From: Oscillospiraceae bacterium
GTDB taxonomy: Bacteria; Bacillota; Clostridia; Oscillospirales; CAG-272
Reading direction: 5' to 3'
Assembly (NCBI GenBank): GCA_015064735.1
Contig: SVRP01000003.1
Coordinates: 14,248-78,247, forward strand
DNA length: 64,000 bases
Below, one piece after another: positions 29,525 through 57,201 of the stretch. The notes below the pieces were generated by a model. That model made no database searches, was not told where the DNA came from, and worked only from the letters and a program-made list of their open reading frames with translations. The stretch's first letter is position 1; each line of letters starts with the position of its first letter. A program made the position numbers and the translations under genes.

Positions 29525-29558
29525 AAATCTGCCTCCGTGCCTTTGTATACTCTCATTT

Positions 29559-29587
29559 AGTATATCATATCTTCGTAAAAATTACAA
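29559..29587 (-). promoter_or_regulatory. Promoter of uvrBA
   Basis: Minus strand: TTGTAA (29587-29582), a 17-nt spacer, then TATACT (29564-29559). Confidence 0.5.
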
Positions 29588-29604
29588 GTAGATGTTTTTA
29601 ATTG

Positions 29605-29652
29605 AAAAAAGGTTCTGTAAAATATTGCGGCAACGCAACGTTTTACAGAACC
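29605..29652 (-). terminator. Terminator of the lipoprotein gene
   Basis: GGTTCTGTAAAA (29611-29622) pairs with TTTTACAGAACC (29641-29652). A T-run follows on the minus strand. Confidence 0.65.
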
Positions 29653-29688
29653 AGATGAAAGCGCTATTTATGTAATTTGGATTTTTTA

Positions 29689-30243
29689 TTATTCAGCCTC
29701 TCCAAAATTAGGCAATTCAGACTTAATATATGACTCTCTTATATAGAGATATCCTTCGGGGGAGCTGAGAACGTTTTCGGAAAACAACAAAATTCCGTTT
29801 ACGTTATCCTTCGTACGGGCTTCGTTACAGGTGTCATCATCGTGAAGTGTCATTGAGTGGAAGAAATACGCAAGAGTCCCGTCATCCATTATTTCATACT
29901 TATAGGTTCTTGTATAATGCGATACCCCCATGATATTATCGACTTCGGAATAGTAGTGATGCTTCAGCAAGCCGTCTTCAAAAATAAGATAATTCTGCTG
30001 ATCCTCGGACCTTGATACGCTACCTTCACTAATATATTTTTCCCCGAAAACTATTTTATTTGATGAGGAAGTATCCTGCTTAATAGGCGCTGATACATCA
30101 TTTCCAATAGCATTGTTTTCCCCGGAAGCCGTTTTGTCTGCTGAAGAAGTATCCTGATTTCCGTTGCCTTCGGACTCATTTTTGCATGCAAAAAGAGTCA
30201 TAAAACAACACATTACCAATAGAAGAGCTATAATCTTTTTCAT
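29689..30243 (-). CDS. Hypothetical lipoprotein
   Basis: MKKIIALLLVMCCFMTLFAC is a signal peptide with a lipobox. A low-complexity Ser/Asn/Gly-rich linker follows, then an unassigned domain. Confidence 0.6.
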   Translation of the reverse strand: MKKIIALLLVMCCFMTLFACKNESEGNGNQDTSSADKTASGENNAIGNDVSAPIKQDTSSSNKIVFGEKYISEGSVSRSEDQQNYLIFEDGLLKHHYYSEVDNIMGVSHYTRTYKYEIMDDGTLAYFFHSMTLHDDDTCNEARTKDNVNGILLFSENVLSSPEGYLYIRESYIKSELPNFGEAE

Positions 30244-30297
30244 AAAATTATTCCTTTTATTTATAAAATTTTATTGGGTTAAATATGGGATATAAAA

Positions 30298-30326
30298 ATT
30301 ATACCATATACCGGCAATAATGTCAA
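30298..30326 (-). promoter_or_regulatory. Promoter of the lipoprotein gene
   Basis: Minus strand: TTGACA (30326-30321), a 17-nt spacer, then TATAAT (30303-30298). Confidence 0.55.
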
Positions 30327-30394
30327 GCCTTAAGTAATTAAGTTGTTAGCTTTTCATGTGGAATATTCGGCATTGCCGAAAGCGAATTTCGTTG

Positions 30395-30427
30395 AAAAAA
30401 GCCATTCGCTTTCGCAAATGGCTTTTT
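30395..30427 (-). terminator. Terminator downstream of the four-helix-bundle/membrane gene pair
   Basis: AAAAGCCATT..GC TTTC GC..AATGGCTTTT, with A-run and T-run flanks. Confidence 0.65.
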
Positions 30428-30487
30428 CTGCCTTAAACGTGACAAAAGGTGTCTGAACAAGGATAAAAACGAACAAAAGGTGTTCGG

Positions 30488-30889
30488 TCAACTTGCGATT
30501 TCAGCAATGAACCGCATTACCGGAAGCAACAAAATGAATGACGGAGACAAAAACAGGCTAAACCTCAGAACATTGAAAAACAGCTCTATGTTATACTCAA
30601 AGCGTGTTCCATTGGTGAATAAAAATGCAACAACTTGCCAAAACAGCAAGAAAACGATCATTGCAACAACTGTAAAAATGATTGTTTTGGTTTTAGTTGA
30701 CTCAAAGGGTTCTATCAGCCGATATGCATTCACTGCAAATAAGAAAAAGTCGATAATACAGATCAACCAAAATATAATTTCGTATGGATTCTTAAATGCA
30801 AAGTAATAGACAAAAGATAGAGAAGATGCTAAAACACCTACAATTATCAGTATTGACAATGGAATTTCTGCTATATTGATTTTCTTCAT
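30488..30889 (-). CDS. Hypothetical membrane protein (about 4 TM)
   Basis: 133 aa and strongly hydrophobic. Its start overlaps the upstream stop (ATGA), which suggests translational coupling. Confidence 0.5.
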   Translation of the reverse strand: MKKINIAEIPLSILIIVGVLASSLSFVYYFAFKNPYEIIFWLICIIDFFLFAVNAYRLIEPFESTKTKTIIFTVVAMIVFLLFWQVVAFLFTNGTRFEYNIELFFNVLRFSLFLSPSFILLLPVMRFIAEIAS

Positions 30890-31233
30890 TTCATGCTTTC
30901 CTTTAGTGTTTTACAACTTGCGATCAACATTCGTCTGATACGACCGCAAAGATTTCTGTGGCTTTTATATGTTTCTTCATCAATACCATTTGTGTTGAAT
31001 AATAACTGTAACCAACCTTCTGTTTCACTACATTCCTTGAGAGCTATTTCAAATTTTGAAAGCATATCTGCTTTGCTCTGTCCGTAATTGGCTTCACGAA
31101 TATTTGCGTACACACTACTTGAGCTCTTGCGAATTTGAAAGAGAGTGTTAGACGGAACTTTTATATTTTGACAAAGCAATTCTATATCGGTCGCAAGCTG
31201 CTCCGAATAGATTAGTAAATAGTTTTTAGCCAT
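30886..31233 (-). CDS. Four-helix-bundle protein (23S rRNA intervening-sequence protein / Avd-like family)
   Basis: 115 aa. FQIRKSSSSVYANIREANYGQSKADMLSKFEIALKECSETEGWLQLL matches the family pattern Q-I-R-R-x-x-x-S-x-x-x-N-I-x-E-G ... F-x-x-A-x-x-S-x-x-E. GGAG RBS. Confidence 0.65.
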   Translation of the reverse strand: MAKNYLLIYSEQLATDIELLCQNIKVPSNTLFQIRKSSSSVYANIREANYGQSKADMLSKFEIALKECSETEGWLQLLFNTNGIDEETYKSHRNLCGRIRRMLIASCKTLKESMK

Positions 31234-31254
31234 AATATCACTCCTTCCAATGGT

Positions 31255-31283
31255 ATTATATCATGTTTTGCAAAGTAATTCAA
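31255..31283 (-). promoter_or_regulatory. Promoter of the four-helix-bundle gene pair
   Basis: Minus strand: TTGAAT (31283-31278), a 17-nt spacer, then TATAAT (31260-31255). Confidence 0.55.
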
Positions 31284-31310
31284 GAACTTTCCGCAATCTC
31301 GCGTCCCAAT

Positions 31311-31493
31311 CACGCCAAAGGCGTGTATATCATCCGCAACTTGTTGCGGTATATCATCAATGCGAAGCATTGTATATCATCAAGCCGCAGGGGAGATACA
31401 GCCCCAAAGGGGCTGATGAGATACAAGGGCGGCGAGCCGCCCTTGATGATATACACGACTGCGTCGTGATGATATGCCAAGCCTGCGGCTTGG
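31311..31493. repeat. Mirror-symmetric array of seven GC-rich hairpins joined by a conserved 10-nt linker (GTATATCATC / GATGATATAC)
   Basis: Hairpins lie at 31311-25, 31334-49, 31359-71, 31399-415, 31425-44, 31455-67 and 31477-93. GTATATCATC occurs at 31325, 31349 and 31372. GATGATATAC-type linkers occur at 31415, 31445 and 31468, with a degenerate copy at 31390. See the findings for detail. Confidence 0.8.
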
Positions 31494-31498
31494 ATAAA

Positions 31499-31537
31499 CA
31501 AAAAGAGAACTTTTGTCTACCAAAAGTTCTCTTTTTG
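31499..31537 (-). terminator. Terminator of tRNA-Val
   Basis: 16-bp stem CAAAAAGAGAACTTTT / GTCTACC / AAAAGTTCTCTTTTTG, followed by a T-rich tract on the minus strand. Confidence 0.8.
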
Positions 31538-31538
31538 T

Positions 31539-31615
31539 TGGTGGAGACAGTTGAATTCGAATCAACGACCCCATGCATGTCAAGCATGTACTCTAACCAA
31601 CTGAGCTATGCCTCC
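31539..31615 (-). tRNA. tRNA-Val (anticodon GAC)
   Basis: Reverse-complement cloverleaf. The acceptor stem is GGAGGCA/TGTCTCC (one G-U pair), the anticodon stem CATGC/GCATG has loop TTGACAT, the T-loop is TTCGAAT, and CCA is encoded. Confidence 0.9.
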
Positions 31616-57174: not shown

Positions 57175-57201
57175 TTCACTATTCACTCTTCACTATTCAC
57201 T
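57175..57201. repeat. Four tandem heptads TTCACT(N)
   Basis: TTCACTA TTCACTC TTCACTA TTCACT, which can also be read as two 13-mers spaced by 1 nt. It lies between the terminator and the MFS stop codon. Confidence 0.7.

Follow-up and report, generated by a model that had tools for sequence, protein, structure and literature searches.

A mirror-symmetric array of hairpins and linkers behind tRNA-Val in an Oscillospiraceae genome: a diverged relative of Gut-1 accompanied by a PF05635 gene

Hairpins and linkers between tRNA-Val and a four-helix-bundle gene

The DNA analysed here (the window) is a stretch of 64,000 nucleotides from contig SVRP01000003.1 of an Oscillospiraceae bacterium (assembly GCA_015064735.1), and at 31311-31493 it carries an array of short hairpins joined by copies of one conserved 10-nt linker, between the gene for tRNA-Val and a gene encoding a four-helix-bundle protein of the PF05635 family. 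As judged from the comparison of related loci, the array belongs to a mobile cassette of ~1.1 kb, composed of a terminator (T1), the array, a promoter, the PF05635 gene and a small open reading frame (ORF). The tRNA, T1 and the parts of the array are, in the direction of the tRNA:

31539..31615, minus strand: tRNA-Val(GAC), with its CCA end abutting the cassette (ARAGORN; Rfam tRNA 66 bits)
31497..31539, no strand assigned: T1, a bidirectional intrinsic terminator (A-run, perfect 19-bp stem, T-run), part of the mobile cassette
31477..31493, minus strand: P0, identical with hairpin G, CCAAGCCGCAGGCTTGG on the tRNA-sense strand, the first hairpin past the conserved TTTATCC junction
31415..31477, minus strand: terminator-proximal half, in tRNA sense GCATATCATC, hairpin F, GTATATCATC, hairpin E, GTATCTCATC
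31392..31415, minus strand: hairpin D (31399-31415), then a truncated fourth linker, GTATCTCC (GGAGATAC on the plus strand)
31382..31391, minus strand: X', a truncated inverted copy of P0, CCTGCGGCTT in tRNA sense, complementary to the P0 5' arm and loop
31308..31381, plus strand (unit polarity): distal half, AAT-C, hairpin A, GTATATCATC, hairpin B, GTATATCATC, hairpin C, GTATATCATC

An earlier note on this DNA, made from the letters alone, had described seven hairpins of different sequence and the linker copies between them, and all seven, each a perfect hairpin, were found together with the linkers where it had placed them. The linker GTATATCATC starts at 31325, 31349 and 31372 (three copies), while its reverse complement is perfect at 31445 and carries one mismatch each at 31415 and 31468. 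The further copy, previously read as a degenerate one at 31390, does exist, but is really the truncated fourth linker GGAGATAC at 31392-31399 (plus strand). At the end of the distal half there is part of a linker, which reads GATT in tRNA sense. When one mismatch is allowed, the 64 kb of the window contain 14 copies of the 10-mer, where 3.7 are expected (0/100 shuffles); 6 of these 14 are inside the array, and a scan of the window for a comparable repeat cluster gave no second array. Folding of both strands, which had been proposed as a check, gave structures far more stable than those of shuffled sequences, both as RNA (z = -6.5 for the plus strand and -5.6 for the minus strand) and as single-stranded DNA (ssDNA; z = -7.95 and -7.50 for the two strands). 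In the Rfam search of the window, tRNA was the sole real match, weak matches to miRNA and snoRNA being noise.

The array was said to sit between the tRNA-Val terminator and the -35 of the promoter of the four-helix-bundle gene, and this holds, with the terminator at 31497-31539 and the promoter at 31283-31255. The remark that it has no obvious transcript of its own agrees with our finding of no promoter pointing into it: no inward or antisense promoter was detected in the window on either strand, nor by eye in the conserved 92-nt spacer.

A family of arrays in gut Clostridia and its relation to Gut-1

A pattern of two linkers 10-25 nt apart was searched for in one genome per GTDB species, and at least 118 loci were obtained (loci are given below as L with a number); among the matches of all pattern scans, L011, L031, L059, L115 and many of L119-L238 were set aside as unrelated repeats. 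The homologue search that the earlier note had called for thus shows that the array is not a one-off, since gut Clostridia of at least 118 species-level genomes have an array with the same 3+3 architecture. Nearly all the loci listed are in metagenome-assembled genomes of gut or rumen Clostridia (Acutalibacteraceae, Oscillospiraceae and relatives), and the dominant arrangement among the matches listed is that of the window, three forward linkers followed by three reverse ones (+++---). The arrays are usually situated behind a bidirectional terminator, and for about 45 of the about 105 arrays among the matches listed the distance from the 3' end of tmRNA, or of the final tRNA in an operon, is 50-65 nt. 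Over 15 types of tRNA are flanked in this way, including Val, Arg, Leu, Gln, Ser, Tyr, Thr, Cys, Gly, Asn, Pro, Met, Trp, Glu and Ala. The two other tRNAs of the window are followed by a terminator of the same style, with no array. Just past the terminator of tRNA-Leu(CAA), at 57175-57201 of the window, there are four direct TTCAC(T) repeats (TTCACTATTCACTCTTCACTATTCACT), which may be a degenerate relative; in L045 a hairpin-less mirror array, ATTCATT/AATGAAT, is found in a comparable place.

Read in the tRNA direction, the consensus starts with tRNA-CCA, an A-run, a stem, a T-run, ATCC and hairpin P0, continues with G(T/C)ATATCATC, a hairpin, GTATATCATC, a hairpin, GTAT(C/A)TCATC, a hairpin and a truncated linker, and is completed by X' (the complement of the P0 5' arm and loop), three GATGATATAC-hairpin units and GAT(T). 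For analysis of the segments between linkers of the same orientation (spacers), 255 distinct ones were used. They range from 9 to 35 nt in length, and 71% of them, compared with 0.9% of shuffled spacers, form a perfect hairpin over their full length. The hairpin modules are drawn from a shared vocabulary, and their order can be swapped between orthologous loci, as between the window and L039. Direct-only arrays reach 12 units, made by tandem duplication of multi-unit blocks, and two arrays on one contig share most of their hairpins (L041, L004). In L043:600-700 an extra hairpin structure of ~50 nt is inserted in the P0 loop (ccaagccgcag[...]taggcttg).

The repeat unit is strand-polar, with the form A-stem-(GNA or GNNA loop)-stem-T plus GTATATCATC, in which the stem is GC-rich. 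On the GTATATCATC strand, triloops are GNA in 48/100 and TNC in 3/100, and tetraloops are GNNA in 34/68 and TNNC in 1/68; the polarity is carried by the loops and not by the stems. Loops of the type C(GNA)G form classic ultra-stable DNA mini-hairpins. The mirror halves put this unit on opposite strands, so that the tRNA-sense strand has four units, the last with the truncated linker, and the other strand three to four, of which the innermost is the truncated inverted copy of the first hairpin, P0. Since G-U pairs are scarce and show no significant strand bias (22 vs 15), the stems behave in this respect like DNA palindromes.

A structure-aware alignment was built by position only (31 elements, 235 columns), and across the 31 aligned elements the unit order and the position-specific linker variants are repeated. 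The seven local hairpins have 98.1% of the alignment cells paired, compared with 67.8% in shuffles, and 37 of the 59 hairpin pairs vary on both sides, with a covariation score of 0.418 against 0.096 in shuffles. The test of stem covariation across homologues, also proposed beforehand, gave therefore a strong signal, and the view that variable stems on a constant linker imply selection on structure and on a recognised 10-mer is borne out by the covarying hairpins and the constant linker.

Two longer-range pairings gave opposite results. P0 has three major and several minor sequence variants across the loci; for 14 P0 variants the longest complementary run with X' is 8.9 nt on average, against 4.5 nt in mismatched controls, and the nine P0:X' pairs are 97.8% paired, 6 of the 9 varying on both sides. 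In the window the complementarity of 31382-31391 to 31482-31491 inside hairpin G, already pointed out, is exact, and P0:X' covaries across the family. As X' is a truncated inverted copy of P0, this covariation could mean base pairing or an inverted duplication at the DNA level. Pairing of linkers with linkers in the register L1:L3', L2:L2', L3:L1' was rejected, for the variation is uncompensated on the structure-aware alignment. The third linker usually carries C as its fifth base, for which the partner offers no G in compensation, and 19 of the 31 elements have the central pair of the inner helix disrupted in this way; the GC/AC variants at linker position 2 track the array position and not the pairing partner. 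The alternative register L4*:L1', L3:L2', L2:L3' shows the same uncompensated C5 by eye, with no formal score. With these uncompensated changes, the stacked 10-bp linker helices and four-way junctions that had been suggested find no support.

Gut-1 (RF01706) has been in Rfam since 2010 as a candidate small RNA (sRNA) based on covariation, with no function assigned, known only from metagenomes and reported only from the human gut (Weinberg et al. 2010, PMC2864571). Our search of the literature on Gut-1 follow-ups, PF05635, the 23S intervening-sequence protein and tRNA-linked repeats gave nothing relevant beyond this listing of 2010. The Gut-1 covariance model gave no match in the window even at E <= 10, below the gathering threshold of 50 bits, and its scores for other arrays are graded: 50.7 bits for L054, which is above the threshold, 28-31 bits for direct arrays with the GTATATCATC-type linker, 27.7-30.8 bits for L070 and 38-46 bits for TGAAATC-type arrays, while the elements with the GTGATAT linker score 57-75 bits in their proximal halves and 35-38 bits, on the other strand, in their distal halves. 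Each half of the window array has the Gut-1 layout of three covarying hairpins split by a conserved single-stranded linker of ~7 nt. When the published Gut-1 Stockholm alignment was examined together with its flanks, the instances were found to run on into a second inverted half and to follow a tRNA or the terminator of a gene. A metagenome scan for three copies of GTGATATT likewise led to Gut-1-type elements, with the layout tRNA, terminator (57-58 nt in all), P0 (TATATTCGCC..GGCGA), three GTGATAT-hairpin units, GGCGAATATA and then three ATATCAC-hairpin units.

The two types have in common at least three variable hairpins on a constant short linker with the core UGAWAU, and a mirror array (P0, three linker-hairpin units, the P0 complement, three inverted units) followed by a PF05635 gene. 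They differ in the linker, GUGAUAU or GUGAAAU in Gut-1 and GAUGAUAUAC in the window type, and in the polarity of the linker relative to the terminator, which is opposite; besides, the Rfam model spans only one half of the element. From the graded model scores and the shared architecture we infer that the window element is a diverged relative of the named family Gut-1. The earlier remark that it is not recognisable as any named family has to be corrected, for Gut-1 shares its architecture and is related to it, although the Gut-1 model does not detect this copy.

Strains of one human-gut species carry one, two or three copies of the whole mirror element between the same two genes. At L265-L272 (about 800-1500), from a human-gut species, the intergenic region between TrmO and the four-helix-bundle gene is 218-694 nt long and carries a Gut-1-type mirror element 1-3 times, with 2-5 units in the left half; here the array comes directly after the tRNA-modification gene, with no terminator.

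The four-helix-bundle gene and the boundaries of the cassette

On the side of the array away from the tRNA, the window has the following features:

31255..31283, minus strand: strong outward sigma-70-type promoter of the four-helix-bundle gene, TTGAAT-17-TGnTATAAT
30886..31233, minus strand: four-helix-bundle protein of 115 aa, PF05635 23S_rRNA_IVP / TIGR02436, Avd family, pI 8.7
30488..30889, minus strand: hydrophobic ORF of 133 aa, likely a membrane protein, variable cargo

The four-helix-bundle protein matches the Pfam model with E = 7.5e-19 and 68.4 bits (cut-off 33.8), TIGR02436 with 75.4 bits (cut-off 24) and also PDB 2rld; none of the PADLOC defence models matches either this protein or the hydrophobic ORF. 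PF05635 is a very large family for which we know of no assigned function outside diversity-generating retroelements (DGRs). The gene always points away from the array, and 60-92 nt separate its ATG from the last linker. In the class of cassettes to which the window belongs, 31284-31307 (GGGACGCGAGATTGCGGAAAG on the minus strand) is conserved, and in a class with 62 nt the -35, TTGATT, consists of the last hairpin arm together with GATT and stands 17 nt before TATAAT. The ATG of the cargo ORF overlaps the stop codon of the four-helix-bundle gene (ATGA, 30886-30892), and the final codons of the latter act as Shine-Dalgarno sequence (AAGGAA in the window, AAGGAG in most relatives); at other loci the cargo position is filled, via the same ATGA junction, by very different and unrelated genes.

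After clustering of 1622 ORFs from the 118 loci listed, the four-helix-bundle gene was the sole specific recurrent neighbour of the array (19 loci), the ABC ATPases and XRE-TPR proteins that also recur looking like common paralogs. In reverse sampling from the protein (three clusters, 14 contigs), the array was always present where the contig includes upstream sequence, with a tRNA, tmRNA or tRNA 3' remnant there in nearly every case. Behind true Gut-1 arrays, whose linker is GTGATAT, comes a PF05635 homologue only 45-48% identical to the window protein, and in L045 a hairpin-less mirror array, ATTCATT/AATGAAT, stands between a tRNA terminator and a third four-helix-bundle homologue. As diverged homologues follow the arrays of both Gut-1 and L045, the pairing of array and PF05635 gene outlasts the divergence of both. 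Arrays lacking the four-helix-bundle gene keep the promoter and the 5' untranslated region, fused to unrelated host genes (L064 vs L079), and some copies of the gene are decaying. The protein gave more than 120 clusters at 89% identity or higher, while the homologues of the ABC transporter encoded by the host fell to 79% by the sixth match; on these sequence identities it is far more conserved between species than host genes.

The extended -10 of the four-helix-bundle promoter, ATGATATAAT (31255-31264), resembles the linker complement GATGATATAC, and the -10 of the corresponding Gut-1-type promoter, GTGATATATT, resembles the GTGATAT linker. These linker-like -10 sequences may be a coincidence, or the promoters may be derived from linker units. 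The idea that the linker itself is a -10 element or promoter decoy was rejected, as it fits the 92-nt class and the Gut-1 type but fails for the 62-nt class, and T at -7 is absent. In the uvrB promoter of the window, the extended -10 (29560-29570) is TATGATATACT, which holds 9/10 linker bases.

Mobility of the cassette is shown by the occurrence of an identical protein, P0093, behind tRNA-Ala, tRNA-Gln, tRNA-Trp and a tRNA-Ser remnant, as part of a shared block of ~1.0 kb, including the array and a 101-aa ORF, that is 95-99% identical across these loci. Since the block begins directly after CCA, T1 belongs to it; in one locus it begins only at ATCC. The block ends with ...CTTTTAGTCGCTCTTTCGCA, after which comes a different terminator at every locus, often with older arrays of other linker classes. 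We rejected CTTTTAGTCGCTCTTTCGCA as a universal right end, since it is confined to one cargo lineage (P0093, L239, L084). T1-type terminators also follow tmRNA (L040) and tRNA-Ala (L245), while L253 has a different native terminator. The T1 loop (31516-31520) reads GGTAGAC in the tRNA direction and GTCTACC in the otherwise identical terminators of L039, L040 and L245, a difference that amounts to a small flip inversion, and the terminator with the GTCTACC loop recurs at many loci, both as T1 and as the second terminator, T2. Two complete cassettes follow in tandem after the tmRNA gene, by smpB, in L239:1891-4054, and in L247-L252 older arrays are pushed outward from the tRNA. Adjoining arrays of AATGATGTT-hairpin units, another linker class, were observed after T2 in L247/L248, and arrays of (A)TGAAATC-hairpin units, with their own pair of P0 and complement, after T2 in L250/L252; the linker classes found together in these bacteria number at least four.

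The closest relative as judged by the ABC transporter (90% identity), L253, has the order uvrB, native terminator, tRNA-Val, ABC gene, and its tRNA-Val locus lacks the array, the four-helix-bundle gene, the hydrophobic ORF and the lipoprotein gene, as is also the case in more distant relatives. The comparison of the interval between uvrB and tRNA-Val in relatives, which had been recommended, has thus located a site where the cassette is absent. Because L253 has only ~120 nt between uvrB and the tRNA-Val terminator, ~2 kb of the window is lineage-specific, beyond the cassette itself. A 184-aa lipoprotein gene with its own TTGACA-17-TATAAT promoter (window 29525-30394), absent in L253, lies in this part. 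The far side of the cassette is represented by two segments:

30429..30487, minus strand: putative right-end segment with two CACCTTTTGT-type repeats, loosely like the P0093 right end ..CTTTTAGTCGCTCTTTCGCA
30395..30428, minus strand: T2, the second terminator (GAAAAAGCCATTTGCGAAAGCGAATGGCTTTTTT), to be compared with the native terminator of L253

T2 probably served tRNA-Val as terminator before the cassette displaced it. Because this second terminator follows a segment resembling a right end, the window cassette was placed at ~30429-31539, between CCA and the original terminator, with the boundary on the T2 side being predicted from these likenesses. The left and right cassette junctions share CA|A(C/G)AAAAA. 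In L015, L043, L058, L071 and L247 a tRNA 3' remnant (Ser, Leu or Lys) is found directly before the terminator and array, with the intact tRNA 200-400 nt further away. By analogy with integration of the integrase type, these remnants suggest small insertions that duplicate the tRNA 3' end.

Proposed role of the array and the alternatives

The reading that we tentatively prefer, although giving it somewhat less than an even chance, is that the array represents the non-coding core of a small selfish cassette, being a recognition platform of single-strand-structured DNA, a boundary or insulator and possibly an insertion site. The array DNA would be transiently single-stranded or extrude hairpins, and the conserved 10-mers would then be sequence-specific recognition sites, the most plausible candidates for binding being a pentamer of the co-evolving four-helix-bundle protein and/or a mobilising enzyme acting in trans, whereas the hairpins would be spacers recognised for structure only. 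Such a nucleoprotein block would mark where the strong tRNA unit gives way to the cassette promoter and insulate the two from each other, with T1 terminating the displaced tRNA, and the array may in addition serve in cis as the place of insertion at the 3' end of the tRNA. Among the three readings offered in the earlier note, the best fit is given by the third (abutted ends of a mobile element, or a miniature derivative of it, beside a tRNA), in view of the near-identical cassette behind different tRNAs and its absence from the closest relative. Several points weigh against this proposal. No transposase, integrase, recombinase or reverse transcriptase is encoded in the element or recurs beside it in the 118 loci listed, about four-fifths of the pattern-selected loci have no adjoining four-helix-bundle gene, and direct-only arrays are also found away from tRNAs. 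The stems of 4-9 bp are short for cruciform extrusion, and no simple polar model fits both the Gut-1 and the window types. The link between the four-helix-bundle protein and the linker is drawn from their co-occurrence in two or three lineages, and we know of no demonstration of sequence-specific binding by a PF05635 protein.

Known systems resemble the array in part. REP/BIME and REPIN sequences are multi-copy short palindromes in alternating orientation with conserved linkers, located after terminators, that form ssDNA hairpins for an HUH enzyme (RAYT). Like them, the array has alternating palindromic units and conserved linkers in intergenic DNA after terminators, but REP sequences conserve the hairpin whereas the array conserves the linker and has 255 distinct hairpin spacers, which sets it outside this group; no RAYT (HUH) transposase was found in the 8-kb flanks of the loci. 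With the attP/attL sites of tyrosine integrases it shares insertion at the 3' end of tRNA or tmRNA, stacked layers, tRNA 3' remnants and repeats of ~10 bp in both orientations, but the cassette junction lies after CCA and not within the tRNA, and the flanks hold no integrase; moreover, in the integrase systems known to us, arm-type sites are not separated by hairpins. Integron attC sites are comparable in their recognition by structure rather than sequence and in the combination of a platform promoter with variable, precisely joined cargo, but the array has no R''/L''/L'/R' boxes and no IntI, its hairpins are much shorter, and the first gene of the cassette is constant. As to DGRs, the adjoining gene is of the Avd family and there are GC-rich DNA hairpins with strand-dependent G..A loops, recalling the GC-rich GNRA-loop hairpin beside the target sites of the Bordetella phage DGR; the array differs in having many hairpins instead of one, and the cassette lacks a reverse transcriptase as well as both the template and the variable repeat. 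A DGR was rejected, the neighbours being the hydrophobic ORF, the lipoprotein gene and uvrB, with no recurrent reverse transcriptase in the 118 loci listed. Also rejected were a CRISPR array (the repeats are of 10 nt, against 21 nt or more for CRISPR, and in both orientations, 71% of the spacers are palindromic, and neither Rfam nor the neighbours give a CRISPR or cas signal), an array of intrinsic terminators (the units are followed by GUAUAUCAUC, the terminator scan finds none inside, and only T1 has A- and T-runs), and plasmid iterons or a parC-type centromere (the spacers are 9-35 nt long and do not keep a fixed helical phasing, and no rep or par genes were seen).

Gut-1 is listed in Rfam as an sRNA candidate from covariation, and the array could accordingly be a structured non-coding RNA of this kind, made by read-through or from another promoter and acting as scaffold or sponge, perhaps with the four-helix-bundle protein bound to it as Avd is to DGR RNA. 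The strong covariation of the hairpins, the resemblance of P0:X' to an alternative RNA pairing and the folding z-scores of -5.6 to -6.5 are in its favour, together with the fact that Avd proteins are RNA-binding partners of the DGR reverse transcriptase (Bordetella phage bAvd). We nevertheless consider it unlikely, because on the tRNA-sense strand the array is placed between a strong terminator and a promoter, with no inward promoter on either strand, and because G-U pairs are rare and strand-unbiased, unlike those of typical RNA families. As the GNA/GNNA polarity switches strand at the array centre, no single transcript has all the favoured hairpins; linker-linker helices would carry uncompensated changes, and strains differ in how many whole mirror elements they carry. 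The polarity switch of the loops, the scarcity of G-U pairs and the position between terminator and promoter speak against one structured RNA that extends over the array, which the earlier note had considered. Quite unlikely, in our estimate, is a double-stranded, iteron-like operator array, in which the 10-mers are duplex sites for a regulator of the outward promoter, possibly the four-helix-bundle protein, and the palindromes are incidental. It would account for an array that always adjoins an outward promoter, the array end being the -35 in one class, for the likeness of the extended -10 of some classes to the linker (ATGATATAAT to GATGATATAC, and GTGATATATT to GTGATAT) and for the hairpin-less ATTCATT/AATGAAT mirror array before the four-helix-bundle homologue of L045. 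However, helical phasing is lost with sites spaced by 9-35 bp, duplex binding leaves 71% perfect hairpins with strand-polar GNA loops unexplained, the -10 of the 62-nt promoter class is not linker-like, and PF05635 has no known DNA-binding fold.

The array might alternatively be a miniature transposon resembling a miniature inverted-repeat transposable element (MITE), consisting of two abutted ends with three subterminal transposase sites each, as in Mu, Tn7 and Tn552, which is mobilised in trans and targets the T-run of terminators, the four-helix-bundle cassette being a mere neighbour. The 3+3 inverted layout kept at most loci, the excess of arrays over four-helix-bundle genes, the contigs with two arrays sharing most hairpins (L041, L004) and the ends ATC...GAT beside T-rich flanks agree with this, but we regard it as improbable: a clear target-site duplication is lacking, P0 takes the outermost place in one half while its copy is innermost in the other, so that the halves are not true terminal inverted repeats, the hairpins between the supposed sites differ, which is unexpected for a recently spread MITE, direct-only arrays of up to 12 units act like tandem repeats, and there is no recurrent transposase nearby. 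The idea that local duplication by chance, or faulty assembly, gave rise to a biologically meaningless element, for which the uniqueness of the element within the window is the sole point, has a practically negligible chance of being correct and was rejected on the basis of the family-wide architecture and the stem covariation, for the same architecture is present in at least 118 independent assemblies and many metagenomes and the stems are kept by compensatory change.

A more speculative proposal, which we hold to be very improbable, is that the cassette is a retro-mobile or RNA-end-guided element that uses the 3' CCA of tRNA or tmRNA, with the Avd-like protein as accessory to a reverse transcriptase. 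An RNA antisense through the array would end at T1, the Avd-like pentamer would bind the hairpin-linker units and recruit a reverse transcriptase encoded in trans, and the CCA-OH of the tRNA would prime cDNA synthesis, after which recombination would set the terminator, array, promoter and gene exactly behind the CCA of whichever tRNA or tmRNA gene. This would explain the junction of CCA with T1, the breadth of the targets (more than 15 tRNA types plus tmRNA), the terminator that travels with the cassette and the constant presence of a gene from a family of reverse transcriptase accessories. If it were true, PF05635 proteins, including those of the 23S rRNA intervening sequences, would serve elements that home to genes for stable RNAs.

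Apart from these readings, the results bear on both Gut-1 and the stand-alone Avd-like genes. The curated Gut-1 motif is only one half of a mirror-symmetric element, and the home of Gut-1-like elements is the 3' boundary of tRNA and tmRNA genes in gut Clostridia of the Oscillospirales type. The strain-variable copy number of the array is a possible strain marker. What the stand-alone Avd-like proteins bind, whether Gut-1 is an RNA, and how a cassette with no recombinase reaches the 3' ends of many tRNAs have now become testable questions. The element is coupled, both physically and evolutionarily, to the stand-alone Avd-like (PF05635) genes, and the cassette would supply the tRNA with a terminator, itself with a promoter, and the next gene with a Shine-Dalgarno sequence and an overlapping stop/start.

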